The notes beneath the pieces were generated by a model. The model made no database searches and had not been told where the DNA came from. It saw only the letters and a list, made by a program, of their open reading frames with translations. Of a DNA stretch of 64,000 bases, positions 1,733 to 53,056 are shown in pieces. A program made the position numbers and the translations under genes. Source of the stretch: Microgenomates group bacterium (lineage in GTDB: Bacteria > Patescibacteriota > Microgenomatia > UBA10105 > UBA927). Position 1 is the first letter of the stretch. Every line of letters begins with the position of its first letter. The DNA is taken from contig JBAQFJ010000001.1 in NCBI GenBank assembly GCA_049287205.1, forward strand, positions 447,041 to 511,040. The letters run 5' to 3'.

Positions 1733-2341
1733 TTATTCTGCTTCTGTTGGGAATGGTTTTGGCGTACCAGATGGTCGTTTCATGGCGCCTCCTTGTTTAC
1801 CACCCCTATCGTCATTCTGTGGAGGTTGTCCTTCCTGCCCTGATACCTCCGGCATGACAAATCCGATTGCAATACCCTCTGCTGTTGCCCATGCCTTTAA
1901 TGCTTCGCGCATTTCCTGCATTTTCTGTTGTCGCTCCTCTTGCGTCAGATCATTCAACACATCTTCTCCATACGTAGCTTTCAATGTTGCGAGCTCAGTA
2001 AGTATGGCGGCTTTTTGTGCCTCAGTGATTTTTCCGTTCGTCACTAATTTTGTTAATCGCTCTTCATCGGTTAACCGGTCTTTTTGTTCCGGCTCACCGC
2101 TTGGTTTTACCATTGGTGTACCGGACGGATTTTTCATATCACCAAGCGAATATTCTGTTGCGGAATCTTTTTTAAAATTCCACGAAAACTTCTGCACAAA
2201 TTTACGAAACCATCCAACAAAAACGTTCTCTTTCTTTGCATTCATTGTTTCTTCTGCGGCAAACACCTGCGGCGATGAAAGCAGTGCAACAGCCATAAGT
2301 GCTATTGCCATAACGGGAACAAATATTTTTTTCGATATCAT
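1733..2341 (-). CDS. secreted hypothetical protein (N-terminal signal peptide)
   Basis: 202 aa; N-terminus MISKKIFVPVMAIALMAVALLSSPQVFAAEE is a classic signal peptide; the rest is low-complexity and charged; no recognisable catalytic motif. Confidence 0.55.
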   Translation of the reverse strand: MISKKIFVPVMAIALMAVALLSSPQVFAAEETMNAKKENVFVGWFRKFVQKFSWNFKKDSATEYSLGDMKNPSGTPMVKPSGEPEQKDRLTDEERLTKLVTNGKITEAQKAAILTELATLKATYGEDVLNDLTQEERQQKMQEMREALKAWATAEGIAIGFVMPEVSGQEGQPPQNDDRGGKQGGAMKRPSGTPKPFPTEAE

Positions 2342-6043: not shown

Positions 6044-6471
6044 AGTGTATCAGCTCCGCCAGTTCTGCGTTTTCTATGTCGTAGCACTTTCATATCCAAG
6101 AATGACCGTTTGAGCATCGCCTGTGCTTCGGCGCGTTCCACACCTACGCCTTTTTGTTTTATTGCTTGTTTTGCTGCGTCCTCTGCTTTTTTAATCTCTG
6201 CTTCATTTAACTCATCCGCATGCACTGCTCGGGACACTAAAATAATGACTTTTTTCTTGGTCACCTGCATAAATCCGCCACCAATGGCAAAATAGGATTC
6301 TTTGCCATTTGCTATAACCTTAATTTCTCCTTCTACCAATGCTGTTACCAGTGGAATATGATGCGGCAAAATGCCTATTTCTCCACTCGGAGTCGAAACA
6401 TAAACTGCGCTTACTTCGGCAGCAAATGCTTCCTTTTGCGGTGTAACGATACTCAATTCTAGCGTTGCCAT
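6040..6471 (-). CDS. atpC: F1 ATP synthase epsilon subunit
   Basis: 143 aa; position at the end of the atp operon and an epsilon-like N-terminal beta-sandwich sequence (LSIVTPQKEAF...SGEIGILPHH). Confidence 0.85.
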   Translation of the reverse strand: MATLELSIVTPQKEAFAAEVSAVYVSTPSGEIGILPHHIPLVTALVEGEIKVIANGKESYFAIGGGFMQVTKKKVIILVSRAVHADELNEAEIKKAEDAAKQAIKQKGVGVERAEAQAMLKRSFLDMKVLRHRKRRTGGADTL

Positions 6472-6473
6472 AA

Positions 6474-7898
<1,425 letters not shown>

Positions 7899-35692: not shown

Positions 35693-36445
35693 TTAGATAG
35701 CTTCACTATACCCTTTTGCAATCGATAAGGCAAAGAAAAAATGTGCCTTTATTCCGATCCATCCATCCAATATTCCTTTACCACGTGTAAGTCCCACAAC
35801 AAACATATCGATAAATGTATACACAGTTTTCCACAGCAGTGACAGTGTACTGAACCGCTCTTCTTTATGCATCATTGCCTGCATACGTATATACCCATCC
35901 AGTTGCCGAAATCCTTTCCATGACAAATACTTATGGATTGAATCGTAATGATAGATGTCAGCATGAATTTGTTGCGTCTTATCCTGAGGGATAGTTACTT
36001 CTTCATGTACTCTATGTATATATTGGATAGCTGATGAATTTCTGAATAAGCGTAACTGGTAGTCAGGATAAAAAAGTCCGTGCTTCAGATATCGCTTAGC
36101 ATTTATATACCAACGGCGTCGAAACCAAAATCCATCATACGTGCGATGTTTGATGAGTTCAGGTATCTGCTCCTTTAGCTCATCACTCAATATTTCATCC
36201 GCATCGAGAACTAAAATCCATTCACCAACCGAACGGGATAATGCATAGTTGCGAACAATGGAGAAATCCTGATTCAGCGGCACTTCAAACACGTTTTTCG
36301 TATACTTCTTGGCAAGCGTAATCGTTTTGTCTGTGCTCCCCGTATCAACTACGGTAATTTCATCGACAAGCCCCTTCACACTCTTGATTGCGTCTTCCAA
36401 TCGTTTCGATGCATCCTTCGTGATAATGATCGCTGAGAGTTTCAT
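35693..36445 (-). CDS. family 2 glycosyltransferase
   Basis: 250 aa; LSAIIITKDASKRL...VVDTGSTD...LDADE GT2 pattern; 4-nt overlap with the upstream MTase. Confidence 0.85.
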   Translation of the reverse strand: MKLSAIIITKDASKRLEDAIKSVKGLVDEITVVDTGSTDKTITLAKKYTKNVFEVPLNQDFSIVRNYALSRSVGEWILVLDADEILSDELKEQIPELIKHRTYDGFWFRRRWYINAKRYLKHGLFYPDYQLRLFRNSSAIQYIHRVHEEVTIPQDKTQQIHADIYHYDSIHKYLSWKGFRQLDGYIRMQAMMHKEERFSTLSLLWKTVYTFIDMFVVGLTRGKGILDGWIGIKAHFFFALSIAKGYSEAI

Positions 36446-37326
36446 ATTTTTTGAGCTATGACCTCTATCATTGTACCTCCATTGTTAATATTCAGCACCT
36501 TATAAAACAATCGACAAAATAATTGATCAAACAAAAAGTATTTAATTCTTTTAATATTAAAATTCTGAATTTTAGACTTCTTTCCCGTATTGATTGCTTC
36601 TATATGATTATCTCTTTTCAAGAGATGTTTAATTAATCCAGCTAAATCAACTGGGTAACTCCACGTATTAAATTTTAGTACTTTGAATCCTTCAGACGTC
36701 AATAAAGTATTTAAAGTAGTTTTGTTAAAATAACTTAAATGCTCGGGTGGGATAACATAATCAAATTTCTCCTTTCGAATTTTTGAAACTAAACTTCCAA
36801 CGTTTGGCGTAGCTATATATATTAGTCCATTTTTATTTAATAATTTATAGCAGCGTTTAATCAACGTCCTTGGCTTAGAAAAATGCTCTATCACTTGATT
36901 AAGAGAAACAATATCATTCAAATAACTAATCTTTGTTGAAACAATATCTCCGAGATACACAGGAAAATTATATTTACTCTTTAAATAATTAACCATTTTT
37001 GAAGAAATATCTATACCTGATACTTGTAATTTATTTGTAATTGCCTCATTTAAAAAAATTCCACTACCACAACCAATATCTAATAAAGTTTTTCTATTTT
37101 TCTTAAATTTGTTAATAAATTTTAATGAATGCTTCGCATCAGAGAGGATAGTCAATGATTTTTCAAAAATATTATGTTTAAAATCATGATAGATTTTAAA
37201 CAATTGAGTCTGATTTAAATAAGGATATACAAAAATGAAGGAACATTTATTGCAACGATAAATATTCCAATTATTTATCTGATAAAGGATATGAACTTGA
37301 TTGGATTTACACAAACAACAATACAT
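36442..37326 (-). CDS. class I SAM-dependent methyltransferase with N-terminal Cys4 zinc ribbon (small-molecule/sugar type)
   Basis: 294 aa; CCLCKS...CNKC ribbon, SAM motif I LLDIGCGSGIFLNEA; no DPPY/NPPY/PCQ DNA-MTase motifs. The gene is markedly AT-rich compared with upstream genes. Confidence 0.8.
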   Translation of the reverse strand: MYCCLCKSNQVHILYQINNWNIYRCNKCSFIFVYPYLNQTQLFKIYHDFKHNIFEKSLTILSDAKHSLKFINKFKKNRKTLLDIGCGSGIFLNEAITNKLQVSGIDISSKMVNYLKSKYNFPVYLGDIVSTKISYLNDIVSLNQVIEHFSKPRTLIKRCYKLLNKNGLIYIATPNVGSLVSKIRKEKFDYVIPPEHLSYFNKTTLNTLLTSEGFKVLKFNTWSYPVDLAGLIKHLLKRDNHIEAINTGKKSKIQNFNIKRIKYFLFDQLFCRLFYKVLNINNGGTMIEVIAQKI

Positions 37327-37476
37327 AACAAAATATATAATCCGAGTTGATTTAAGCCAATAGTATGCGATTTCGCCAAGTTACTCAAGAGTACAATCTT
37401 TGCTCAAAAATATGTGCTCTAAGAATGCGAAGATTTATAGAACTGGATTAGCTATTAGCCTCAGTCTTCCCCAAAA

Positions 37477-38460
37477 CTAAATATGATTCATTAACGTATG
37501 ATGTTCTTGAAGTATTAAATTTAAGTTTTCTTGATTCATATTTCTATCAAAACCTCTAATAAGATAGTAATTATTTTTCCCTATTCTAAATTTGTTATTC
37601 ATTGTGATAGACCTATTGCTCATTATTCTTTTCAGCATTTTAAGCCATTTTTTCTCATATCGATATTTAATTGACCTATGAATAGTATTTCCAATTAAAT
37701 CCGGTAACAATAACACAGGCTCATTCTGTTCGTTAGAAATCTTCAAATTTCGGAATACTTTATGACCATCTAATACACTTCTTCCTTCGAACATAATTGA
37801 GTGCTTTAATTCAAAAGGATGTTTTATATTTCTCAGTTCCTGTGGAGAAAAAATTTTGAATTCTGGATTTAAATGATTTGTTGTGAGAATTAACATCTGA
37901 TTTAAGATAGTCTTAAAATTTTCAGATTTGGTTTGGGTGTCAATTATATGATTAAGATCCCAACTGTCGTTAGCTTTATAAATATGTATAAAATCAAATT
38001 GGTAATATTGCATCCATTCTCTATAAAGTTCGTAAATAAGCATAAATTTAGAAAAATCTGCGTTAGACATAGCATTTAATCTCCTTGCCATTAACTCCAA
38101 TTCGTCAATTAAACTCTTATGACCATTATTTATTTTTAACGAGTCAATAGATTCTTTAATTAGTCTAACTTGACCGTTACGTTGATATTTTACCAATTCG
38201 TCAATTCCAAACTTTAAATCAAATAATAACGAAGTGTATTTAATCTCATATTTTGTTCCAATATATTTAAGAATTTTTTCTCTATTGCCATCATCGATTG
38301 TTTTACCTTTTATATCACTCCAACCATTTGGATAAAGAGCATCCATTAATGACCTAAATTTTCGCCATTCATTGTCTGTAATTGTAACAAGTGTCACAAT
38401 TCCGTATTCAAGATCTTTGCCTTCTCTAAAACTTCCTGTTTCGTCAATTGCTATGTACAT
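37477..38460 (-). CDS. DUF3800-like protein (N-terminal I-D-E-T-G motif)
   Basis: 327 aa; N-terminus MYIAIDETGSF matches my recollection of the DUF3800 hallmark (Y/F-I-D-E-S/T-G); very AT-rich gene. Confidence 0.45.
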   Translation of the reverse strand: MYIAIDETGSFREGKDLEYGIVTLVTITDNEWRKFRSLMDALYPNGWSDIKGKTIDDGNREKILKYIGTKYEIKYTSLLFDLKFGIDELVKYQRNGQVRLIKESIDSLKINNGHKSLIDELELMARRLNAMSNADFSKFMLIYELYREWMQYYQFDFIHIYKANDSWDLNHIIDTQTKSENFKTILNQMLILTTNHLNPEFKIFSPQELRNIKHPFELKHSIMFEGRSVLDGHKVFRNLKISNEQNEPVLLLPDLIGNTIHRSIKYRYEKKWLKMLKRIMSNRSITMNNKFRIGKNNYYLIRGFDRNMNQENLNLILQEHHTLMNHI

Positions 38461-38552
38461 AATTTCATTTTATCAAACTTCAATGCATATATATTTTCTA
38501 TCTCTTATTACACCCGAGATATGGACATAGAGTGATATAATGACCTATAAGT

Positions 38553-39797
38553 ATGTCTTCCAAAGTTAACTACCTAATTATCTTCGATACAAATGCACTT
38601 TTTGGTGACCCAATACGATCTAGTGTTCTTAATTTTATCGATACATATTCAAAAAATACGCGGTTCGTACTAACATTTGCTATACCAGAAATAGTCAAAA
38701 AAGAACTTACAAAACATACTTTAAAGAAGTTCGAGAAAGCACTACATCAATATCAAGAATCAGCTAAGGAAATTGAATTCCTAACAAACCACAAATTTAG
38801 AGATCTTCATCTAGATCAAAAAGCTGCATTAAATAGACTTAATCGTTTATTCAAAAAGAAAAATATAAAAATTCTTCCCACTCCATACAAAAAAATTAAT
38901 TGGGAAGCTATAGTCGACAAAGCAGTAGAATATATACCCCCTTTTGAAGAAGGAAAAGAAAAAGGATTTAAAGATTCATTAATTATCGAAACTATTTTGT
39001 CACACATGAAAAAACTAGATAAAGATACTTATGTGGCGTTTATATTCATTGACAATGTGTTAAACGAATTTATAAAAACATTAACTCAAACCCACAAACA
39101 ACTCCATGTCTATCAATCTACTGATGACTTTGAAACGTATTTGAAACTACAACTGTTAGACTCTGATAAGGAATTTATTGAAAAAATCAAAGCAGAAGCA
39201 GAGTTCACATTTTCTGACGAAACTAACCCTAATGCACTATTCTGGAAAGAAAACCTACGAACTAAAATTTATAGCACATATAGGGAGATAATAGAAAATC
39301 CATATTATGCAAATAAAAAGGCCTTATTGGGAGCCACTACATACGGTGAAACCCTTGTTCCAATAGATTCAGGTAGATATACAATCGCAAATCCAACATT
39401 TATAGAACGTGACGAGAATTCTATTTTAACTTGGAGATCGTCTGTAATTTTTGAAAGGGCTTATTGGAGAAGTAACTATATTCCAATACATACACACATT
39501 TCTGAACGATCACATATCGCTCAACATTCACATGCGCCTCAAACAACACCTGAAGTAATGTACTATAACGTAGAATTTGAGGTTATTTGGAAATGCCAGA
39601 TGAATGAAGAAGAAAAAATTACTGATGCGATGATTGACAATATCAAGTTCATAAATAATTGGAGAAATGAAAGAGATAGTTATACAAACTTATATTTTGA
39701 CCGTTCTGCTAATACCTCATTACCAACGACAACGTCAGGTCAGGGAACTATACCAATCTCTAGCTTAAATGATATTATAAACGATAAATCTTATTAG
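38553..39797 (+). CDS. PIN-like nuclease-domain protein with large C-terminal unknown domain
   Basis: 414 aa; N-terminus YLIIFDTNALFGD (PIN strand-1 Asp), further acidic residues at AIPEIVKKE and FIFIDNVL consistent with a PIN catalytic tetrad; diverges from the DUF3800 gene across a 92-nt gap. Confidence 0.45.
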   Translation: MSSKVNYLIIFDTNALFGDPIRSSVLNFIDTYSKNTRFVLTFAIPEIVKKELTKHTLKKFEKALHQYQESAKEIEFLTNHKFRDLHLDQKAALNRLNRLFKKKNIKILPTPYKKINWEAIVDKAVEYIPPFEEGKEKGFKDSLIIETILSHMKKLDKDTYVAFIFIDNVLNEFIKTLTQTHKQLHVYQSTDDFETYLKLQLLDSDKEFIEKIKAEAEFTFSDETNPNALFWKENLRTKIYSTYREIIENPYYANKKALLGATTYGETLVPIDSGRYTIANPTFIERDENSILTWRSSVIFERAYWRSNYIPIHTHISERSHIAQHSHAPQTTPEVMYYNVEFEVIWKCQMNEEEKITDAMIDNIKFINNWRNERDSYTNLYFDRSANTSLPTTTSGQGTIPISSLNDIINDKSY

Positions 39798-39804
39798 ATA
39801 CTCT

Positions 39805-40218
39805 ATGACTAATCAAACAAGAAAAATGAGAGAAACATTGACTAAGTTATTCGGTAATAATAATACTTTACCACCAATCATTTCAGGCGCCGCATCATTA
39901 ACTTTACTTTGGAAAATAATTGCATCGCCAGAAATAAATAACATAAGATTTTATTCGTCTTTAACTATTTTATTAATTTTTTTTATATCGTCCTGTCTTT
40001 TATACTATTATTTAAGAAAACTCGAGAAAGACAAAGATGTTTATCTTATTAGCAGCATAGGAAAAATTGTTGAAGATGTATTTCGCCACTATGGACAGAT
40101 GATGGCTGAAAAAAACGCAGATCGTGCAGATGCAAAAAGCATGAATGACGTTATGAAAACGATTGTAGATTTAATAGGACGAATGAAAAATTTATCGAAT
40201 AAAAAATATAAAGATTAA
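39805..40218 (+). CDS. small two-TM membrane protein co-transcribed with the PIN-like gene
   Basis: 137 aa; hydrophobic segments AASLTLLWKIIA and LTILLIFFISSCLLYYYL, charged C-terminal tail; 8-nt gap after the PIN-like gene. Confidence 0.45.
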   Translation: MTNQTRKMRETLTKLFGNNNTLPPIISGAASLTLLWKIIASPEINNIRFYSSLTILLIFFISSCLLYYYLRKLEKDKDVYLISSIGKIVEDVFRHYGQMMAEKNADRADAKSMNDVMKTIVDLIGRMKNLSNKKYKD

Positions 40219-40619
40219 TGGGCTCAAAAAATTGTCAACGTCGTACAATCATAGATGTACGTGTTGTAGAAATCTGCTTTAATTAGTTTTACAATTTAAT
40301 AATGGTTCATCGTTTATACGCAGGCATAATATATGCAACACTATCAAAAATTTGTTTTGATGCAGCATGGATAATGTTTCTTTATTTTAAATAGCATCAA
40401 GAAAACCTTTAAAAGGTATGTCTGCATATATTTTCACGCACTAATTTTCCCCAAAGACCCCTGAAGCTGCGAGACTCTGACACTTTAAAATACGATGTAT
40501 ACTAAATCTGTATGCACTTCAAACGAAAGAAACCAAAAAGTCAGGTGAAAAACGTCAGAAGTAATTTACGATGGCTCGGCAACAGCAAACGACGGCTTAC
40601 CAAACGGGATAAACAACAA

Positions 40620-40925
40620 TTACTCCACTTCACTGAACCGTTTTCCATTTATAGCCGCACGAATACCAGTACATAACCCCTGACCTGCAACATTAACTGT
40701 ACAACAATTCGGTTGATTTGGTGTTTCATGCAATTCACAACTATTTCCTGTTAAAAACACACAATCATCAGGCATTATATATCCTCCCTCTTTGGGAGTA
40801 AGCGTCACGCCTTTTTGTTGAAACATAGCAACTTCAGACGAACTCAAAAAGAAAATCACCTGCAAATCAACATGTTTACGACAGCAATGTGCGTTGCAAT
40901 CTCTAAGACATTCAATATTAGCCAT
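40620..40925 (-). CDS. Cys-rich YkgJ/UPF0153-like putative Zn/Fe-S binding protein
   Basis: 101 aa; CLRDCNAHCC at the N-terminus and a second Cys cluster (CELHETPNQPNCCTVNVAGQGLC); TATAAT box ~11 nt upstream of the ATG suggests a leaderless transcript. Confidence 0.5.
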   Translation of the reverse strand: MANIECLRDCNAHCCRKHVDLQVIFFLSSSEVAMFQQKGVTLTPKEGGYIMPDDCVFLTGNSCELHETPNQPNCCTVNVAGQGLCTGIRAAINGKRFSEVE

Positions 40926-40982
40926 AAAACGCTTTATTATAATCCATACCTAAGAAAATGAACATAATATCCGTATTTGGAG

Positions 40983-41020
40983 AGGGTCAGACCCTTGAGA
41001 TCAAAGATTTAACCTATAGC
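40983..41020. repeat. structured repeat copy 1: AGGGTCAGACCCT-N17-CCTATAGC
   Basis: Exact 13-mer palindrome AGGGTC-A-GACCCT at 40983-40995 and CCTATAGC at 41013-41020; the same composite recurs at 42868-42905. Confidence 0.6.
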
Positions 41021-41153
41021 GGTAAATATCATAGATACATAATTCTGTAGATACAAAAACACCCTCACTATTCTCCTTTTTCAGGAAAACGACCAAAATG
41101 GTCACGTGAGGGCATCTTTGCAGTATTTACATTATTACGGAATTTTCAACTTT

Positions 41154-41549
41154 TTATTTCTTATCTTCAGAAGATGCCAATACAAACGGTTGTACAATAC
41201 CATCAATTTCCCATTGCATAGCTTCATTGTATTGCCGTCGGCTGGCAGCTGTTTTGATTTCTCCGTTTTCATGGAGCAGAACTAAAAAATCATGTCGCAT
41301 TTGCTTTTTTTGGGCTTCTGAGAACTCGATAACTTCCTCATCTTTGTGCAGATACTCGATAAAGCTTTGCTCAAAAAATATTTCGAGATCTTTATCAGAC
41401 AGACGGGCATATTCCTCATCGTTCTCAACGAGTTCGCTGAAACATACAATGAATTCCAACCATCGCATGTCAATCTCATCCTCAGCTTTGAGCTTCAACG
41501 CTCTTCTTAAAGCCATCTTACATATATTCGCAATTCGATCCTCTGGCAT
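41154..41549 (-). CDS. hypothetical acidic protein
   Basis: 131 aa; no recognisable motif; clean ORF with an upstream partner 33 nt away. Confidence 0.4.
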   Translation of the reverse strand: MPEDRIANICKMALRRALKLKAEDEIDMRWLEFIVCFSELVENDEEYARLSDKDLEIFFEQSFIEYLHKDEEVIEFSEAQKKQMRHDFLVLLHENGEIKTAASRRQYNEAMQWEIDGIVQPFVLASSEDKK

Positions 41550-41581
41550 AATTTCCCTCGTCTTTGAATGAAGTTACCCGA

Positions 41582-42019
41582 TTATTTCCACAACGCGTCA
41601 ACTTGCTCGCAAAGCCACTTCCTTCGATCATACGCATTGTCCGCCATTTGAAGAAGCCGCATACCACAATCGTAAAATGTGTCAGGATAATGCCACATTT
41701 TTTCCATTATGTATGCATTTGTATACAATTTTTCTCCTAGAGCTCCTTCTTCAATCTCGGTCAAATCTGCCGCCTCGAAGACTTGCTCGAACAGCAATTT
41801 TCTTGCAAATTCCTGACCTTCGTCTTCCGTCAGCACCCGAGCAGGTCCTTCACATACAAGCCATCCGTTTTTCAATGTTGCGGATACTGATCCCCAGTGC
41901 ATTACTTCCTTCGGTGCAATAATCGTGCCGATTTCATTTTTTTCGTTATAACGCATTTGAACAACAACTATTTTTCCATTTAGGGAATATTTCCTGTTCA
42001 CAAAAAACTTCATTTCCAT
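41582..42019 (-). CDS. hypothetical protein
   Basis: 145 aa; no recognisable motif. Confidence 0.4.
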   Translation of the reverse strand: MEMKFFVNRKYSLNGKIVVVQMRYNEKNEIGTIIAPKEVMHWGSVSATLKNGWLVCEGPARVLTEDEGQEFARKLLFEQVFEAADLTEIEEGALGEKLYTNAYIMEKMWHYPDTFYDCGMRLLQMADNAYDRRKWLCEQVDALWK

Positions 42020-42065
42020 CGTATACTCCTCTTTATCCTTCTAAAATTTTTGGATTGATTATTAT

Positions 42066-42120
42066 CAAATCGATAACACACTGAACACGAACCAATCATG
42101 TCCATGATGCTATCGATTTG
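42066..42120. promoter_or_regulatory. perfect 10-bp inverted repeat CAAATCGATA-N35-TATCGATTTG in a divergent promoter region
   Basis: Directly read at 42066-42075 and 42111-42120; lies between divergent genes 41582-42019(-) and 42372-42782(+). Confidence 0.45.
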
Positions 42121-42297
42121 ACCTTGTAAGGAGCATACCTATTCCGTAATATGTAAAAGTGCAAAATAAACCGATATACTACCAAAAAAGCGCAGCTAAT
42201 GAGCGCAATCTCGGTGAGATATACAGGCGTTCAATATACCAAAATTTGATAAAAAAGTCCAACTATAGGACTATTCTAGGCAGTAGCTTCATATTTT

Positions 42298-42326
42298 TTG
42301 CAATTTTTCATTTTGTAGCATATACT
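42298..42326 (+). promoter_or_regulatory. sigma70-like promoter TTGCAA-17-TATACT for the 42372 gene
   Basis: Hexamers read directly with 17-nt spacing; GGAGG RBS 5 nt before ATG 42372. Confidence 0.5.
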
Positions 42327-42371
42327 CGCGCTAGCTTGAATTTTTCATCCAAAAACCCGAATGGAGGAACA

Positions 42372-42782
42372 ATGGAAGAAAAAACCGCAAGGCAAGTGCA
42401 TCAAGAACGGCATCAAGCCGTTCAAAAGGTGCTCGACTCTCTGTTAGCAGTGGTACATGACACTGGCATAACGGAAGGAAGACACCTGAATGGTAAAGAT
42501 GACAGGATCGTTGTGACCATGACCATATGGCCGAAAGGATCACGTGTTCGGAATCTGTACTTTGAATCTGGCCCCGGCATCATGGTCACGCATGGCAAGA
42601 ATGACCTGTACGCAATTGAGTACGATGCGGACACATTCGATGTCGTCGATACCACCATATTTGACGGTGAGGTCAAAGGCGCCGGCAGAATTCATTTCAC
42701 CTACCCAGGACTCGGCAACACCATAGGTGAAGCGGCAAAGTTGGCAACGCTCATCAAAAGCGTGAAGTGGAATTTAGGTTAG
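42372..42782 (+). CDS. hypothetical protein (136 aa)
   Basis: Start reassigned to ATG 42372 (GGAGG RBS) rather than the track's 42159, because the upstream extension covers promoter-like sequence; no motif recognised. Confidence 0.45.
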   Translation: MEEKTARQVHQERHQAVQKVLDSLLAVVHDTGITEGRHLNGKDDRIVVTMTIWPKGSRVRNLYFESGPGIMVTHGKNDLYAIEYDADTFDVVDTTIFDGEVKGAGRIHFTYPGLGNTIGEAAKLATLIKSVKWNLG

Positions 42783-42812
42783 CACATTTTCCTTTCACGC
42801 ACACACATCGAG

Positions 42813-42856
42813 GGGTAGCCTCAATATTGTTTTCATTGAGGCTGCCCTAATTTTTT
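42813..42856 (+). terminator. rho-independent terminator
   Basis: 13-bp stem GGGTAGCCTCAAT / ATTGAGGCTGCCC (one U-G), 9-nt loop, followed by TAATTTTTT. Confidence 0.65.
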
Positions 42857-42867
42857 CTCACAGCTTC

Positions 42868-42905
42868 AGGGTCAGACCCTGGAAGCGGAAGCTATACCCT
42901 ATAGC
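42868..42905. repeat. structured repeat copy 2: AGGGTCAGACCCT-N17-CCTATAGC
   Basis: Exact 13-mer at 42868-42880, 17-nt spacer, CCTATAGC at 42898-42905; embedded in a longer imperfect palindrome CAGCTTCAGGGTC-A-GACCCTGGAAGC. Confidence 0.6.
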
Positions 42906-43125
42906 ATTGTAATACCCGTACTCTTTTGCTATACTGAGCCTCTTCCTGACCAAAAAAGTTGTTGCGCCTTATGCGGTACAAACAACCTTATACGTCAGGT
43001 TTTTCGCACATTACCATACCGATTAACAACTTCTCTTCATATGAAGGAGTGAATAGTGCCTTGAATACAATATTTTCTTGCATTCAGTGAGCTATTCATT
43101 TTTATCATGGAAGGGAGGGAAAGAA

Positions 43126-43623
43126 ATGAGCATATACATTGCTATTCTTAACAATTTTATCCAAAGAACAGAAACAGATGTGTTGCTTGTTCCATTTTAT
43201 GGAACAAAAAGAATCTGGATCAATGAAACAGCCAATCAGCTAATTCACCAATCCTCAGGACAGCACTTTAAACGAAAACTTGTAGCATATGTAAAAGAGA
43301 CCATCATTTTACCAGGAGAATTCATTTCATTTTCTAAAGAAAAACTACTTTGCTTTCGCGATAATGTCGCTCAGTCGATAACGGCGACCATACCAATTCT
43401 GTTGTATGAAGCACTAAATAGAAATTATCATCATATCGTTATACCGCTGCTCCGCTCGCACATACTCAGTGTGCAAAACTCGGCAGAAGAAATGGTAGGA
43501 GGTATTCAACATTTTTTTCATTTTGTACAACAGCATATCAACATTACGATTGTTCTTGGCAGTTCGCAAATCAGTTGTCTTGATTTTCTGCAAGAACAAG
43601 CAGTACGTGTAAACAAAACGTAA
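43126..43623 (+). CDS. paralog A of a three-member family; divergent macro-like/Rossmann-like domain protein
   Basis: 165 aa; GGAGG RBS 6 nt upstream. Shares TDVLLVPFYG, ...LIHQSSG, HIVIPLLRSHILSV...EEM and ITIVLGS motifs with paralogs B and C; motif order resembles the macro domain but lacks its Gly-rich loop. Confidence 0.5.
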   Translation: MSIYIAILNNFIQRTETDVLLVPFYGTKRIWINETANQLIHQSSGQHFKRKLVAYVKETIILPGEFISFSKEKLLCFRDNVAQSITATIPILLYEALNRNYHHIVIPLLRSHILSVQNSAEEMVGGIQHFFHFVQQHINITIVLGSSQISCLDFLQEQAVRVNKT

Positions 43624-43696
43624 ACGGAAGCACGCAACATACAGAGTCATCTTGTAAAAGGAGGTGTAGCAGGTAAAAAGTACGGACGTAGTTATA

Positions 43697-44296
43697 ATGC
43701 TTTTTGACAGTAATGACGTTACATATATCTCTTATATCGAGGAAAACGTGACAAACATTATAGCTAAAACATACAGTGTCATAGGAAACGCAACAAATGC
43801 GATTATTGTTGACACAATTGTCGCACTGATCCACCCAATCTCAGGTGCCTACACAGAACTCACCGGCAATATTATTCGCGGCACCTATGAAATATTTCAT
43901 ACGCTCTTGCAACAACAGCTACAAGACCATCCGCCGAAAAGTGACGAGTGTTTCTTTGTACAACAGCCCCATCGGCCTGAACGGACATTTGACAATGTTC
44001 TGTATGTCGCAGATGACGGATCACTTCCCTTGTCTACATTTACCGAACGCATTCTCTGTCAACTTGTTCAACATGGTAGTTCTATTGTTGCTATACCGTT
44101 ATTACGGTATCAACAAACATCCGTGAAGGAAACGACCGAAGCCATGCTCAACGGCATACGGCGTTTTCAAGATACCAATAATGCACCGCTTCATATTTAC
44201 CTGACACTCGGTAAACGTGATTCCGTTGCATGGAAGTTGCTTCATGCGGAAACAAAATACTGCGGGGAGTGGAGTAACGGACAATATATTGCGTAA
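43697..44296 (+). CDS. paralog B of the same family
   Basis: 199 aa; motifs NAIIVDTIVALIHPISG, SSIVAIPLLRYQQTSVKETTEAM, LHIYLTLG align with A and C. Confidence 0.5.
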   Translation: MLFDSNDVTYISYIEENVTNIIAKTYSVIGNATNAIIVDTIVALIHPISGAYTELTGNIIRGTYEIFHTLLQQQLQDHPPKSDECFFVQQPHRPERTFDNVLYVADDGSLPLSTFTERILCQLVQHGSSIVAIPLLRYQQTSVKETTEAMLNGIRRFQDTNNAPLHIYLTLGKRDSVAWKLLHAETKYCGEWSNGQYIA

Positions 44297-44364
44297 CACG
44301 GCGCTAGTTTTTTGTTCAAAAATTTTACATCTCATCCAATATACGATAGGGAGAATACAAGATA

Positions 44365-44907
44365 ATGGAAATAAAGATGTTCTACTACCTGAAAGAAAAA
44401 AATGCAAAGCCGTTACAGACGGACGTGTTGGTTATTCCGTTCGGTTCCAACGCGCGATCGCTCGCACTTCTTGCACCGACCAGTGAATGGGTACGAGAAA
44501 ATAAAGCATACGCGCATTTGATCAGCAGCGACGAGGTCGTAAAAAAGAGTGCGACGTTTGTAGACTCTACCCCCGTTGCCAAATTCACGTTTTTTATCAA
44601 ACACCTCAGCGGATCGAGCATCCACGCGCTGGTAACCACGTGTTTGGAATTTGCAATTGAAAAGAACTGCGCAATGATCGACATGCCGTTGTTCACTGCA
44701 AACGGATTCAAAGCAATGGATGACAGGGTAATCATGAAAACGATGATTAAAGCATGTAATGAATTTGCAAAAAAACATGAACATGATGCGGCATCGCTTG
44801 AAATCTCGTTTATTCTTGACACAACGCAGCAAGACCTTGCTGTATTTTGCGCTTCCAAAGGAATTCAATATTCAGGAAGACAGGAACAAGGACAATTCAA
44901 AAGATAA
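44365..44907 (+). CDS. paralog C of the same family
   Basis: 180 aa; motifs QTDVLVIPFGS, AMIDMPLFTANGFKAMDDRV, EISFILDTT align with A and B. Confidence 0.5.
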   Translation: MEIKMFYYLKEKNAKPLQTDVLVIPFGSNARSLALLAPTSEWVRENKAYAHLISSDEVVKKSATFVDSTPVAKFTFFIKHLSGSSIHALVTTCLEFAIEKNCAMIDMPLFTANGFKAMDDRVIMKTMIKACNEFAKKHEHDAASLEISFILDTTQQDLAVFCASKGIQYSGRQEQGQFKR

Positions 44908-44971
44908 CTCATGTTAATCGGTTCGACAGCATACAAAAAAATTATGGAGTAATCCAAAACTATTTTTGTTT

Positions 44972-45019
44972 GCTGCTTTTAAAGCAGAACCGACCCAACC
45001 GTTGATTCTGCTTTTTTTT
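44972..45019 (+). terminator. tandem-hairpin rho-independent terminator
   Basis: CTGCTTT-TAA-AAGCAG then GCAGAA...TTCTGC followed by TTTTTTTT. Confidence 0.55.
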
Positions 45020-45032
45020 GGGAAAAAAATTC

Positions 45033-45596
45033 TTATTTGCGTTTTCCGAGTGCAATTGCCAAAACCACTGTAGCGTTTGCAAGAAAAATGTAGAATGGAT
45101 AACTTAATAATACAATGTCAAATTTTCCAACTGAAAACATAGAAAATATGCCGCCTATCGCGATAAGAAGCCACGCACTACTTGTTTCACTTCCCGGATC
45201 CTGATACGCTTTTTCCACAGTAAGATATGTGCCAAGCGCATCAATGCCAATGACAAGATATAGTGCTATAGCCGCTTCTTGTGTAAGATACCATGCAATA
45301 AGTCCTGCTGCAGCGGCAAGCAGCGTATGATAATCCTTTTTAGAAAACCCTCCGACACCAAACCATAATGATAGAAAAAATATAAGTATAACTGACAGTG
45401 TATCTATACCAGTAAGCCACAAAGAAAATGTTGCACCTTTCGCAAATTGTGAAAAAAATGAAATACCACCAAGCACGCTATAAATAAACCAAGTCGACCG
45501 TTGCGGTTTCGTTGTTTTTCGAAATATATCACGAAGATACGGAAATGTTCCTAATAAAACGAAGATGCCTGATAGATAGCCAAAAAGTTGCGTCAT
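45033..45596 (-). CDS. polytopic membrane protein of unknown function
   Basis: ~187 aa; 5-6 TM helices. Start trimmed to the internal Met (MTQLFGYLSG) because the track's N-terminal extension overlaps tRNA-Val. Confidence 0.5.
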   Translation of the reverse strand: MTQLFGYLSGIFVLLGTFPYLRDIFRKTTKPQRSTWFIYSVLGGISFFSQFAKGATFSLWLTGIDTLSVILIFFLSLWFGVGGFSKKDYHTLLAAAAGLIAWYLTQEAAIALYLVIGIDALGTYLTVEKAYQDPGSETSSAWLLIAIGGIFSMFSVGKFDIVLLSYPFYIFLANATVVLAIALGKRK

Positions 45597-45608
45597 AAAA
45601 TTTTCTTG

Positions 45609-45681
45609 TGGGCGTATCAGGACTTGAACCTGAGACCTTTTCAATGTCAATGAAACGCTCTACCAGCTGAGCTATACGCCC
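45609..45681 (-). tRNA. tRNA-Val (anticodon GAC)
   Basis: Reverse complement folds: acceptor GGGCGTA/TACGCCC, D-arm GCTCAGCTGGTAGAGC, anticodon stem TTTCA/TGAAA with loop TTGACAT, T-loop TTCAAGT; CCA not encoded. Confidence 0.85.
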
Positions 45682-48875: not shown

Positions 48876-49928
48876 TCATTCAAATGCAATTGCCCAAAGG
48901 ATTCCGTAAGAAACGGCTATCGAGAGGATCGAACTCCCTCCTAAAGACACCAACGGAAGCGTAATGCCGGTAACCGGCAAAATCCCCATATTCATGCCAC
49001 TGTTGATCGTAATTTGTGTGAGCAGCATCATAAATACACCGATGGTATAAATCGTTGCAAGCCGATGATGGATGACTTTTGCAATAAGAGGCTGCAGTAA
49101 TCGCCACAATAGTATGCCGTATAACCCAATCAAAAGTGCTCCACCCACGAAGCCAAGTTCCTCCACAAGGGTTGCAAACATAAAATCGGTGTAGTATTCC
49201 GGTAAAAATCGAAGATGACTTTGTGTTCCAAGCCCCAAACCCCGGCCGAAAAATTCTCCGCTTCCGACAGCGATCATTGCCTGAATCGCATTGTATCCTG
49301 TGCCTCTGGGGTCCTGCAGCGGGTTTAAAAAAGTGGAGATGCGAGACTTCTGGTATTCCGCAAGTACCTTCCAAATCAACGGAAAACCTGCGAGCCCTGC
49401 GCCAATTCCCCCAAATACTAACGGAAGAGACAACCCGCCCATAATCATCATCCCAAGCCACATAGATCCATACACCAAACTAGTTCCAAGATCCGGCTGC
49501 TTGAATATCAACAAAAACGGTACGAGAAACACACCGAAATTTATCAAAATATTTGATAGTTTTTTTGGCGGATATTTGGCGATTACGGCGGCAAAAATAA
49601 AAAGCATCAACGGTTTTACGAGTTCTGACGGCTGCAGTTGATTTCCCGCGATAACAATCCACCGTCTGGCTCCCCGAATTACCGGACCAAAGTATGACGT
49701 AAGTAAAAATATATTGCCGAACACATACCCAAATGGTACAAGCCAGCGAAGTAACACGACATCAAATTTTGAAAACAGAAAAAAAAGCACGCCCCCAAGC
49801 ACGACATAGATCAACTGCTGCCAAAATAGTGATATGTTGATCGTTAGGAGCAAAAAAAGTCCAAACGAAGACAATAAAATGAGCGTTATGATTGAGACGA
49901 TGTCGTAATATCGAGTGTTTCTGCCCAT
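48876..49928 (-). CDS. SEDS-family peptidoglycan glycosyltransferase (RodA/FtsW paralog)
   Basis: 350 aa; 10 TM helices; large loop with GLGLGTQSHLRFLPE and C-terminal GGSSILS, typical of the FtsW/RodA/SpoVE family. Confidence 0.8.
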   Translation of the reverse strand: MGRNTRYYDIVSIITLILLSSFGLFLLLTINISLFWQQLIYVVLGGVLFFLFSKFDVVLLRWLVPFGYVFGNIFLLTSYFGPVIRGARRWIVIAGNQLQPSELVKPLMLFIFAAVIAKYPPKKLSNILINFGVFLVPFLLIFKQPDLGTSLVYGSMWLGMMIMGGLSLPLVFGGIGAGLAGFPLIWKVLAEYQKSRISTFLNPLQDPRGTGYNAIQAMIAVGSGEFFGRGLGLGTQSHLRFLPEYYTDFMFATLVEELGFVGGALLIGLYGILLWRLLQPLIAKVIHHRLATIYTIGVFMMLLTQITINSGMNMGILPVTGITLPLVSLGGSSILSIAVSYGILWAIAFE

Positions 49929-52732
49929 ATGATTTCCTTCGCAATAGTATCGGACTTCACACGTTCTAGTACATCTTTCGGCAGTGATTCATATTCCTTT
50001 GGCAAATGCAGCGTTATAACATCACTCACCAAACATTTCCTCTCTTTTCTCAAGCCCTGTACTTTACGAATCAAGTCACGCATTTTTCCTTCATCAATCA
50101 AGTCTTGCGTCAATATCGTATCGAGCGTTACCTGAATCTCATCAGTACTCTTATTTTCCATCGTTAGTGTTTTTATATTTGTTTCTTCCAATACAACGGC
50201 AATAAATTCATCCGCAAGCTGCATGGATCCGCCGGAAATGGTTGCCTGTTTAAGCGGTTGCCGAACTGCAATTCCCAACTCTTTTCGTTTTGCATGAATT
50301 TTTTCTACAATGAGTCTTGCGTTCGTCATGGATTGTTCAAGCTCCATATTGATTGCTTTCTCATCAAACGTTGGCCAATCAGCTAAATGAATAGACGTCC
50401 CGTTGCCCCCTACATTTTGAAAAATGCGTTCTGTTATAAACGGCGTTATCGGCGCCATGACTTTCACAAGCTCTCGGATAACCCATCCGCATACGTTTCT
50501 GGCGGTTTTGTCTTCACGAATCCTGTCGCGGCTTCTCCTGAGATACCACGTAGAAAGAACATCAACAAATTCAGAAATATGCCGGCAGGCAAGTACGGTA
50601 TCATACCCGTCCAGCGCGAGGGTCACATCACGGATAAGTATGTTCGTCTTACTGACAATCCACGTATCCAAAATATGCACTTGTGTAGGCTCAACAATTA
50701 TTTCCCTTTCAGTTTTATACAACTGATAAAAACTAAAGACATTCCATAAAATGTTGATCACCCGCTGATACACATCTTTGACTGCATTTTCAGAAAAATT
50801 AATATTTTCCGCTTTCATAACAACTGAACTCATCAGATAAAACCGCAGGGCATCAACGCCGTATTTTTCAAATACGATGTTCGGATCCGGAAAATTCCGT
50901 TTTGATTTGCTCATCTTTTCCCCGTTTTCCGCAAGGATTGTCCCCGACGTCACCGCATTTTCAAATGTATGCGTGCCAAAAAGCCCGACAGACATGACAT
51001 GCAACGTATAAAACCACGCGCGGGTCTGCGCGATGTATTCAGAAATAAATTGTGCGGGATGAGTACTTTCGAATTTTTCTTTGTTTTCAAACGGATAATG
51101 AATAGATGCGTATGGCATGCTGCCTGATTCCACCCAACAATCAAACACTTCAGGAATCCGTTTCCCTTTTTTCGTTTTTGCATCATCTACCCAAAGTTCA
51201 ATGTCATCCAAATACTGCCTATGAATATTTGTTATATCTTTGACTAATTCAGGATCCACTGCCCATTTTTTGAATTCCTCAATAGATCCAACAATTCGTC
51301 TCGTTACTTTTCCTTCCGCGTCTGTGTATGCCCAAATTGGCATCGGCGTTCCCCAATATCTACTCCTGGAAACATTCCAATCAGGTGCTTGCTCCAGCCC
51401 TTTACCAAATCGTCCCTCTTTTAGATAGGAAGGATACCAATTGATGTTTTGATTTTGTGCAATAAGCTCCGGTTTGATCTTTTGTACATCGATAAACCAC
51501 GCAGGAACCGGCGCATAGTATAAACGCGTCTCACACCGATAACAGGTAGGAACACTGTGGGTGATCCGTTCTTCCTTATACAGAAGTCCCCTACTTTTTA
51601 AATCTTCATCAATGAGTGGATTTGCTTTTAAAATATACATGCCTGCCCATGGAGTCACTTCTTTTTTTAATTTTCCATCTGTATCCACGTGTTCTGCAAG
51701 TTGAATATGATGTTTTTTCATCACACGATAATCATCTTCCCCATACACAGCAAGGGTTACAATGCCTGTTCCTTCAGATGCCGTAACATACTCATCTGCA
51801 ACAATGATGAACGCCTCTTCATCTTTGGTTCTCTCTGGATAAAAATCATAGAGCGGCTCAAATTTCATACCGTGCAGCTCTGCACCCGTCATTTTTTTCA
51901 CAATTTCATACGGACGTTCATCCAATATTTCAAGCCGGGTTTCCGCCACTATATATATTTCTTTGCCTTGCTTTGCAAATACATAGGTAAGATTTGGATT
52001 AACAGCAAGTGCAGTTGTGACAAGTTTAGTCCATGGTGTTGTAGACCACGCAAGAAAATAGGTGTCTTCCAATCCGATAGCTTTAAACTTATATGTGGTC
52101 GACGCTTCCTCCACATCTTTATAACTGTTATCCATGGCAATTTCAAAATTGGAAAGTGGAGTTGCGCACCGAGGGCAATACAAAATAACTTTTCTTCCTT
52201 CATACACGAGTTCTTTTTCAAAAAGCGTTTTAAACGCCCACCACACAGACTCCATATAGGTTGTATCCATGGTTTTATACGAATGTTTGAAGTCTACCCA
52301 ACGGCCAATACGCCTGACAACTTTTTCCCATTCTTTGTCAAAACGTAATATTGCGTCCCTGCATACATCGTTGAATTTCCCGACGCCCATTTCCTCAATT
52401 CCTTTTTTTCCGCCTTTCAGTCCCAATTCTTTTTCGATCATGTTTTCTATCGGCACTCCATGACAATCCCATCCCCATACCCGATCAACACGATATCCTT
52501 TCATTGTGTAGTATCGTGGAATTACATCTTTGATAGTTGATGCGAGTATATGTCCATAATGCGGAAGACCGGTTGCAAACGGAGGACCGTCATAAAATAC
52601 ATATTGCTTGTCCGCGGGTCTTGAAGAAACGGATACTTCAAATGCGTGTGTCTCGTCCCAAAACGCCAACACGTCATGCTCCCATGCAGGTATATTTGTT
52701 TTTTCGCCAGTGGTTGTCTGTAGTGTAGCCAT
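49886..52732 (-). CDS. ileS: isoleucyl-tRNA synthetase
   Basis: 948 aa; class I HIGH-type motif PHYGH and KMSKS, editing domain, anticodon-binding domain. Confidence 0.95.
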   Translation of the reverse strand: MATLQTTTGEKTNIPAWEHDVLAFWDETHAFEVSVSSRPADKQYVFYDGPPFATGLPHYGHILASTIKDVIPRYYTMKGYRVDRVWGWDCHGVPIENMIEKELGLKGGKKGIEEMGVGKFNDVCRDAILRFDKEWEKVVRRIGRWVDFKHSYKTMDTTYMESVWWAFKTLFEKELVYEGRKVILYCPRCATPLSNFEIAMDNSYKDVEEASTTYKFKAIGLEDTYFLAWSTTPWTKLVTTALAVNPNLTYVFAKQGKEIYIVAETRLEILDERPYEIVKKMTGAELHGMKFEPLYDFYPERTKDEEAFIIVADEYVTASEGTGIVTLAVYGEDDYRVMKKHHIQLAEHVDTDGKLKKEVTPWAGMYILKANPLIDEDLKSRGLLYKEERITHSVPTCYRCETRLYYAPVPAWFIDVQKIKPELIAQNQNINWYPSYLKEGRFGKGLEQAPDWNVSRSRYWGTPMPIWAYTDAEGKVTRRIVGSIEEFKKWAVDPELVKDITNIHRQYLDDIELWVDDAKTKKGKRIPEVFDCWVESGSMPYASIHYPFENKEKFESTHPAQFISEYIAQTRAWFYTLHVMSVGLFGTHTFENAVTSGTILAENGEKMSKSKRNFPDPNIVFEKYGVDALRFYLMSSVVMKAENINFSENAVKDVYQRVINILWNVFSFYQLYKTEREIIVEPTQVHILDTWIVSKTNILIRDVTLALDGYDTVLACRHISEFVDVLSTWYLRRSRDRIREDKTARNVCGWVIRELVKVMAPITPFITERIFQNVGGNGTSIHLADWPTFDEKAINMELEQSMTNARLIVEKIHAKRKELGIAVRQPLKQATISGGSMQLADEFIAVVLEETNIKTLTMENKSTDEIQVTLDTILTQDLIDEGKMRDLIRKVQGLRKERKCLVSDVITLHLPKEYESLPKDVLERVKSDTIAKEIIWAETLDITTSSQS

Positions 52733-52912
52733 AAAAAAACCGCCCTCCTTTATTATTACACAAAGGACGAACGGATGTTCGTGGTACCACCTTAGTTACT
52801 TCTTAATTTCAGCTGTTTCGGGCATACCCGGAATAGTCTACTCGTCTTTTTTTTAAAGACTTTCTTTATTCAAGCGATTCTCTGTTGATAGCAGATAATG
52901 ACGCTTTTTGCT
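52733..52912 (-). ncRNA. T-box leader (tRNA-Ile-sensing riboswitch) of ileS
   Basis: On the minus strand: AGAGA box (CAACAGAGAATCGC), ATC triplets in the putative specifier region, T-box sequence AACTAAGGTGGTACCACGA, then hairpin CGAACATCCGTTCG and AAGGAGGG RBS before the ileS ATG. Confidence 0.6.
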
Positions 52913-52918
52913 TTTCTT

Positions 52919-52947
52919 AGTATAGCAAGATAACTGTTTATCTTCAA
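52919..52947 (-). promoter_or_regulatory. sigma70-like promoter TTGAAG-17-TATACT driving the ileS T-box leader
   Basis: Minus-strand hexamers read directly (plus coordinates 52942-52947 and 52919-52924) with 17-nt spacing. Confidence 0.55.
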
Positions 52948-53056
52948 TAAAATGTTTTTATACGACTGTGTGTCAGAAAACTAATACAACTAAATCATCA
53001 AAAAGATGAACGAGAAAAATCTCGGTTGTATTAGTTTCATTATAGATATGCAATTG

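Follow-up and report, generated by a model that had tools for sequence, protein, structure and literature searches.

The window analysed here is a stretch of 64,000 nucleotides (nt) from contig JBAQFJ010000001.1 (positions 447,041 to 511,040, forward strand) of a Microgenomates-group bacterium, a member of the candidate phyla radiation (CPR) with a small genome, represented by the metagenome-assembled genome GCA_049287205.1. It contains an island rich in adenine and thymine (AT) at positions 36442..40400, which carries the genes for a methyltransferase dependent on S-adenosylmethionine (SAM) and for three proteins further referred to as B, C and D. B and C are predicted nucleases, C having a PIN_12 domain, and D is a small membrane protein. 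With a probability of roughly 0.55, we consider this locus to be a small, horizontally acquired, mosaic defence islet of independent and independently mobile genes situated at the end of a cell-envelope glycan cluster. Nuclease activity, substrates and an anti-phage role of these genes are inferred from the domains and folds of the proteins, the conservation of the active sites and the genomic associations. In the initial annotation the region was described as a candidate single toxin/abortive-infection system. This arrangement is absent from the 34 PIN_12 loci, the seven contexts of B and the approximately eight loci of D that were compared, and the three-gene-system reading is unsupported by any of the approximately 49 comparison loci. 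The more general suggestion of a foreign defence or toxin locus stands in part: the composition is foreign and a defence or toxin role is plausible gene by gene, but no joint system was found.

The content of guanine and cytosine (GC) drops to 0.25–0.32 over approximately 36.44–40.4 kb, the surroundings being at approximately 0.41–0.45. For the interval 36442-40619, where the island was originally placed, it equals 0.297 versus 0.416 in the remaining window, and for 36442..40400 it is approximately 0.30. Windows of 500 bp outside the island have a mean GC of 0.415 with a standard deviation of 0.031. Relative to this distribution, seven 500-bp windows within the dip have z from -2.9 to -4.8, and the eight windows with the lowest GC (out of 128) form one contiguous block, 36,501-40,500. 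The GC content of third codon positions (GC3) is 0.22–0.24 in the four island genes versus 0.39–0.48 for most flanking genes; in the open reading frame (ORF) of 101 amino acids (aa) immediately to the right of the island it is 0.27. The composition is thus not uniform, and the sharp drop reported earlier at about 36.4–40.6 kb is confirmed, with its end moved to approximately 40.4 kb. The left edge is abrupt (36,400-36,450) and coincides with the junction between the methyltransferase gene and a GT2 glycosyltransferase gene. The right edge, at approximately 40,350-40,450, falls within non-coding DNA, and hence the island spans approximately 36,440-40,400 and does not reach 40,619. The non-coding stretch of 401 nt carrying this boundary (40219..40619) has no Rfam match, no unusual fold and no credible gene remnant. 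A candidate pseudogene at 40443-40652, resembling a 119-aa neighbour of a B homologue, was rejected: besides being rich in lysine, the match is interrupted by a stop codon, and its E is ~1 when a larger database is searched. All four previously listed ORFs were found, and the locus is present as identical copies in two sequencing runs. The island is compositionally foreign and probably horizontally acquired.

Protein C (38553..39797, plus strand, 414 aa) matches the Pfam family PIN_12 (PF16289/DUF4935) with 60.2 bits and E 4.4e-16, the gathering threshold being 32 bits; residues 9-164 align to positions 1-166 of the 172-position model. In the AlphaFold2 model (mean predicted local distance difference test score, pLDDT, 82.7) the PIN domain (residues 1-200) is followed by a helical linker and a beta-rich C-terminal domain (approximately 267-372), and no fold match for the model was found in the PDB at E <= 0.001. 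An exhaustive HMMER search yielded 828 representative relatives, mostly 370-450 aa long, aligned over most of their length. Conservation was counted in an alignment of 151 family members. The acidic tetrad expected of a PIN nuclease is near-invariant, so that C withstands the refutation test set in the initial annotation: D12 is aligned with 139 Asp and 6 Glu in 145 sequences, E51 is conserved in 148/148, D141 in 150/151 and D167 in 151/151. In the C-terminal part the aromatic residues F220, F283, W294 and W346 are kept in 135-148 of the 151 relatives. Only the closest subclade additionally has a C-terminal motif T-x2-G-x-G-T-x-P (T-x2-G-Q-G-T-(V/I)-P), which in C is TTSGQGTIP, residues 393-401 (39729..39755, plus strand). 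Motifs of this type occur in 15/151 family members, and T393, G396, G398 and T399 are invariant in the eight closest relatives. The motif is placed between a disordered linker and a variable low-complexity tail, with a short strand modelled at 398-401; it could be an autoinhibitory or docking peptide.

Genomic neighbourhoods of the C family were surveyed using one genome per species, which gave 34 loci (L012-L045), and three genes on each side were compared all-against-all. The loci span Gammaproteobacteria, Levybacteria (CPR), Planctomycetes, Acidobacteria, Legionella, Kangiella and others. Within these limits no gene family besides PIN_12 itself is shared between loci, in agreement with the published description of DUF4935 genes as usually monocistronic (PMC5499597), and homologues of B or D were found in 0/34. 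In 25/28 loci the PIN_12 gene is AT-richer than its flanks, by 6.4 GC points on average and by up to 20 points (Wilcoxon p = 2.8e-6), as is characteristic of accessory genes that move horizontally; the whole family appears to be mobile in this way. The homologue from Levybacteria adjoins a fragment of a serine-recombinase gene. Plasmid- or integron-borne copies were sought by tblastn of C and a gammaproteobacterial relative against PLSDB, with no match.

Protein D (39805..40218, plus strand, 137 aa) starts 7 nt past the stop codon of the PIN_12 gene. It had been described as a protein with two transmembrane segments. It is indeed a real conserved small membrane protein, but by Kyte-Doolittle hydropathy the first segment is only marginally hydrophobic (1.2-1.5), the second reaching 1.7-2.0. 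Homologues have identity of 41-58%, the C-terminal approximately 65 aa being very strongly conserved, and library scans revealed no sequence relationship to any described family. Only about eight distinct loci with D homologues are known. In three kinds of them the gene immediately upstream, on the same strand, is a defence gene: SduA (Shedu), whose end overlaps the start of D (spacing -11 nt, PADLOC 2.7e-24, within a type I restriction-modification locus; L050); a 908-aa type IIG restriction-methylase, whose end is also overlapped (-23 nt, PADLOC 5.7e-113; L057); and a DpdB/DndB-like gene 61 nt before D (PADLOC DpdB 1.2e-17; L046 to L049 and L056). The last loci also contain an adjoining HinfI-type restriction-modification pair and a BrnT/CopG toxin-antitoxin pair. 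Given this position behind Shedu, type IIG and DpdB/DndB-like genes, D is considered a defence-island gene; it may either assist the gene upstream of it or be carried along independently.

The remaining contexts of D are looser. In L053, L058, L051 and L052 the upstream gap is at least 155 nt, and in L053 the D homologue follows a ribosomal-protein operon (the upstream gene encodes ribosomal protein S9) and precedes a weakly Mrr-like gene. Reading by eye, we observed a remnant of a restriction-methylase-type C-terminus ('LTPEEIKIVE') directly upstream of D in L053 (3900-3958) and another one ('EIKIVEEEK*') downstream of D in L046 (~6450-6480), which suggests that D was repeatedly rearranged next to the termini of restriction-modification genes. 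Homologues of B or C are absent from all of the approximately eight D loci. Neither a domain common to the upstream partners nor conserved DNA flanks, as expected for a cassette, were detected. Tentatively, D might be a portable 'tail gene', that is, a membrane module behind unrelated nuclease-based defence genes (PIN_12, SduA, type IIG, DpdB/DndB-like) of small-genome, probably CPR, bacteria, though we hold this doubtful. Such a module could couple activation of the defence gene to a membrane event or tether its partners at the site of phage DNA entry.

Protein B (37477..38460, minus strand, 327 aa, starting with MYIAIDETGSF) is a predicted RNase H2/DUF3800-like nuclease, assigned by fold and by the DE motif. 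Its family comprises 22 homologues of 316-327 aa, none of which has a Pfam domain; the sole member with a named source comes from Microgenomates (CPR). Residues D6, E7, D156, D165, H171, D174 and D254 are invariant. The AlphaFold2 model (pLDDT 85.4) was compared with known structures using Foldseek: the best match in the PDB was archaeal RNase HII 1eke (1eke_B, probability 0.97, E 0.05), and in BFVD a phage 'DUF3800 domain-containing protein' was matched (probability 0.99, E 2.3e-3). The structure 1EKE is also the template reported for retron-associated DUF3800 proteins, whose motifs are an N-terminal DE and a C-terminal QxxD (PMC7736814). The original label 'DUF3800-like' is supported by the RNase H2-like fold and the DE motif, but not by the Pfam DUF3800 model (PF12686), which matched none of the 22 family members at E <= 10, nor by the second motif, as the invariant D254 lies within L-P-D-L-I-G and the Gln is missing. 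Significant NCBIfam or PHROG matches of B were not found either (the best is phrog_8974, E 0.22).

DUF3800 genes associate with structured RNAs (Weinberg et al. 2017, PMC5737381). As partners of type VII retrons and of some Cas12/Cas13 loci (Cas12a2/Cas12a3/Cas13), DUF3800 proteins have been proposed to cleave RNA/DNA hybrids or structured nucleic acid. No reverse transcriptase, CRISPR array, tetratricopeptide-repeat domain or RNA of the DUF3800 type was found near B. Likewise no DUF3800-associated RNA was found near seven other B-family members, and the intergenic regions of the island fold no better than shuffled sequences. The 92-nt divergent region between the B and PIN_12 genes (38461..38552), which presumably holds their promoters, shows ordinary RNA folding on both strands (z -1.07 and -0.14) and has no Rfam match. 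The only match to a DUF3800-associated RNA family in the window, DUF3800-IX at 41057-41113(-), was rejected: it scores 22.6 bits versus the gathering threshold of 36.8 (window-scale E 3.1), lies 2.6 kb from B and has no counterpart near other B homologues. The segment folds into a very stable Y-shaped structure (-33.9 kcal/mol, z -7.3), in which a 15-bp outer stem surrounds two hairpins and a U-tract follows; it lies shortly downstream of ORF 41154-41549(-) and is probably a terminator-like element.

Homologues of B were found in seven distinct contexts, including Mrr-like nucleases with a helix-turn-helix (HTH) gene (L003), a RarA/MgsA-type ATPase with an integrase gene (L004), methyltransferases (L006) and a 600-aa membrane protein present in two closely related loci (L060 to L062). 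In L008 (5912-8368) the B homologue starts 16 nt past a tRNA gene, with a UvrD-type helicase upstream, and is followed by a 443-aa SLOG/LOG-like protein with PADLOC matches to PsyrA (1.9e-11) and ShosA; here B seems to have entered a PsyrTA/Shosta-like locus or landed next to it. Sequence comparison of five of the contexts revealed no homologue of PIN_12 or D, and for the remaining two neither a PIN_12 gene nor a neighbour of the size of D appears in the gene tables. The upstream gene for a protein of approximately 600 aa was considered as a partner of B and rejected: L060/L061 and L062 are close kin, the pairing looks like plain synteny, the 600-aa gene of L006 is unrelated, and none is present in the window. 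The methyltransferases of L006 do not make the methyltransferase of the island a conserved partner of B, as they have only generic class I likeness to it (24% over the SAM-binding region). Viral contigs of IMG/VR contain no homologues of B or D. Separately, a strong LOOT RNA (RF03000, 91.8 bits) was observed in L061 at 2021-2146 (+), approximately 3 kb upstream of the B-family gene and adjoining a large serine recombinase gene.

The fourth gene of the island (36442-37326, minus strand) encodes a class I SAM-dependent methyltransferase of 294 aa with an N-terminal Cys4 motif (Methyltransf_23, E 4e-21; Methyltransf_11, E 3e-13). Its NCBIfam matches are sub-threshold and of the UbiG/BioC type, acting on small molecules, and its PADLOC match (mad2/MTase_II) covers the SAM-binding region only. 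Its stop codon and the start codon of the GT2 glycosyltransferase gene downstream (35693-36445) overlap by 4 nt (ATGA), the two genes being translationally coupled, and farther left there are genes for GT4, a PMT_2-like membrane protein, a second GT2 and a Wzy_C protein. By the ATGA overlap and the flanking Wzy_C/GT2/GT4 genes, the methyltransferase is predicted to be a functional part of the surface-glycan operon and, judged from sequence, is no part of a toxin locus. Its earlier description as a sugar-type SAM methyltransferase within the island thus holds for the small-molecule class I enzyme and for the island-like composition (GC 0.26), but not for its assignment to the toxin locus.

Several observations weigh against the reading of the locus as an islet of independent mobile defence genes. 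An integrase, a tRNA gene or flanking repeats that would identify the island as a mobile insert were not found, and direct and inverted repeats considered as attachment sites were rejected as short chance-level matches. PADLOC-DB v2.0 has no match to B, C or D at E <= 1; no PADLOC v2 model fits the three genes. Apart from the recombinase fragment mentioned above, the neighbours of the three closest homologues of C are housekeeping genes, with no obvious defence islands. Surface-glycan gene clusters are often described as having mosaic composition, and the AT-richness could partly reflect this. Since B, the methyltransferase, GT2 and GT4 are all co-directional, B could be co-transcribed with the glycan genes. 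The direct likeness of the C family to the defence protein Cosus (Brc24), discussed below, is restricted to residues 42-186 of Brc24, with 7.9 bits in hmmsearch and hhalign probability of 5.4%, the Brc24 sequence having been rebuilt from text obtained by optical character recognition (OCR) with frameshifts, which makes this comparison weaker. Finally, C and D are on the same strand and their 7-nt spacing is operon-like.

The last observation is the starting point of the rival that survives best, namely that C and D form a two-gene module in which the PIN_12 nuclease is the sensor or effector and D is a membrane anchor, a pore-type effector or a regulator that also serves Shedu, type IIG and DpdB-like proteins. 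In four cases a D gene overlaps a defence-type gene or starts close behind it (-23, -11, +7 and +61 nt), these four genes being unrelated, and the strong conservation of the C-terminal approximately 65 residues is as expected for a specific-interaction domain. Still, the module is possible rather than likely, as D has no homologue in any of the PIN_12-family loci outside the window, and the wide gaps in four D loci, with S9 upstream in one of them, count against it; the number of D loci is small. The four upstream partners have no detectable sequence in common, so a shared docking surface is hard to picture.

The reading of the region as unrelated to defence is less probable still. According to it, B and C process RNA or DNA as accessory enzymes, D is an unrelated membrane protein, and low GC is the mosaic of the glycan cluster. 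The methyltransferase tied to the glycan operon, the co-directional B, the housekeeping neighbours of the closest C homologues and the lack of PADLOC matches all agree with it. However, the C family is patchy over many phyla and AT-richer than its flanks, D is linked to restriction-modification, Shedu and Dpd-like genes, Cosus provides a precedent for PIN_12, and DUF3800-type nucleases are linked to retrons and CRISPR loci.

A single toxin/abortive-infection system of B, C and D, with the divergent B as a regulator or co-effector, is very unlikely. It draws on the adjacency of the genes, their common low GC and the 92-nt divergent promoter region, but adjacency and common low GC alone do not make a system, and as the arrangement never recurs among the B, C and D loci compared, it is largely refuted by comparative genomics. 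Least probable of all is a pair of a VapC-like toxin (C) and an antitoxin (D or B), suggested by the PIN fold of the VapC structural group (PMC5499597) and the small gene close behind, since C has 414 aa with an extra conserved domain versus a PIN toxin of ~130 aa, its upstream neighbour is a divergent gene for an RNase H-like protein, HTH, AbrB and ribbon-helix-helix genes are absent, D is a membrane protein found also behind non-PIN genes, and the PIN_12 family is monocistronic elsewhere.

If the locus is an islet of independent defence genes, its parts would act as follows. C would be a self-contained metal-dependent nuclease, probably a ribonuclease, cutting with the D12/E51/D141/D167 site, and target recognition or activation would fall to its conserved beta-rich C-terminal domain; its mode of action would resemble that of the single-gene PIN_12 protein Cosus, which blocks phage T7. 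B would be a second, separate nuclease, the carboxylates D6-E7, D174 and D254 of which would cut RNA/DNA hybrids or structured nucleic acid. D would be a gene of defence islands, placed time and again at the 3' ends of nuclease genes unrelated to each other, and may act alone or as an interchangeable membrane accessory. The methyltransferase would modify a sugar or lipid for the adjacent glycosyltransferases.

Anti-phage defence of CPR bacteria is poorly charted, and PADLOC sees nothing at this island. Were the proposed roles correct, PIN_12, with more than 800 representative clusters in many phyla and a consistently foreign composition, would be a widespread single-gene defence family having one tested member (Cosus); the B family, not covered by the Pfam DUF3800 model, would add to the RNase H-fold proteins with links to defence; and D, trailing four unrelated defence nucleases, would provide a lead on a shared accessory module. 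The association pattern of D is the most novel of these leads and is based on approximately eight loci only. C is a new member of a known, barely studied family, and B, a variant of the DUF3800/RNase H2 theme.

Two other features of the window were noted. To the right of the island (40620-45600), up to a tRNA-Val gene (45608-45681), there are seven ORFs of 101-207 aa with no Pfam match above cut-off, only weak sub-threshold ones; between two of them (43078-43623 and 43697-44296) a segment of the C-terminus is weakly alike (36% over 42 aa). The stretch possibly represents a second variable region. At 52760-52956 (-), directly upstream of a 948-aa ORF (49886-52732(-)), there is a sub-threshold match to the T-box leader (39.9 bits versus gathering 93, E 2.3e-5), possibly a divergent T-box riboswitch of this CPR bacterium.

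Comparison with known systems was made for each protein of the islet. D resembles accessories of the Csx28 type, as it is a small membrane protein directly beside nuclease-type defence genes; Csx28 with Cas13b (cited in PMC12669027) is an example of such a small membrane accessory or effector of defence. It differs in following four unrelated partner families instead of one and in having no sequence relationship to any described family. B is similar to DUF3800 (PF12686) in the RNase H2-like fold (1eke), the N-terminal DE, the length of ~320 aa and the structural match to a phage DUF3800 protein, and differs in that the Pfam model misses 22/22 members and QxxD is replaced by L-P-D-L-I-G. The DUF4935 proteins described by Matelska et al. 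(2017) have acidic residues conserved in an N-terminal PIN domain of the VapC group, in which strand 2 is followed by a long helical insert; their alpha/beta C-terminal region has no known structural relative, and their typical length is ~350 residues (PMC5499597). C shares the PIN domain, the acidic residues, the strand-2 insert and the orphan alpha/beta C-terminal region, and differs in being longer, in having the GQGT(V/I)P motif of its subclade and in having a gene 7 nt downstream.

The integron cassette of Cosus (Brc24) consists of a single gene, and its product, which has a PIN_12 domain, fully blocks T7; the substitutions T12A, D14A and D96A reduce T7 resistance more than 10^5-fold (bioRxiv 10.1101/2024.07.02.601719). 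For the comparison, the Brc24 sequence was rebuilt from OCR text of Table S3 of that paper, with frameshifts corrected via the mutagenesis primers. The Brc24/BrcN homologues mentioned there for Kangiella japonica gave no link to the present family, as the Kangiella locus (L039) does not significantly match the rebuilt brc24 DNA. In Proteobacteria Brc24 is borne on an integron cassette flanked by attC, whereas C lies in a CPR chromosome without repeats; the C-terminal regions do not align, and the direct likeness is very low and limited to the PIN domain. On these sequences C is not an orthologue of Cosus. On the other hand, both proteins match PIN_12 above cut-off (106.5 bits for rebuilt Brc24, 60.2 for C), both consist of ~370-415 aa with an N-terminal PIN domain and a further region, and both are encoded as mobile single genes. 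The motif P-F...G-K-x-K-x-F-x-D is in register between Brc24 and the C family. By inspection, outside the computed alignments, which start at residue ~23, strand 1 of Brc24 (A-I-T-I-D-N, with T12 and D14) corresponds to I-I-F-D-T-N of C (D12 and T13), so that the strand-1 Asp is shared (D14 and D12). The PIN_12 scores place C in the same Pfam family as a validated defence protein.

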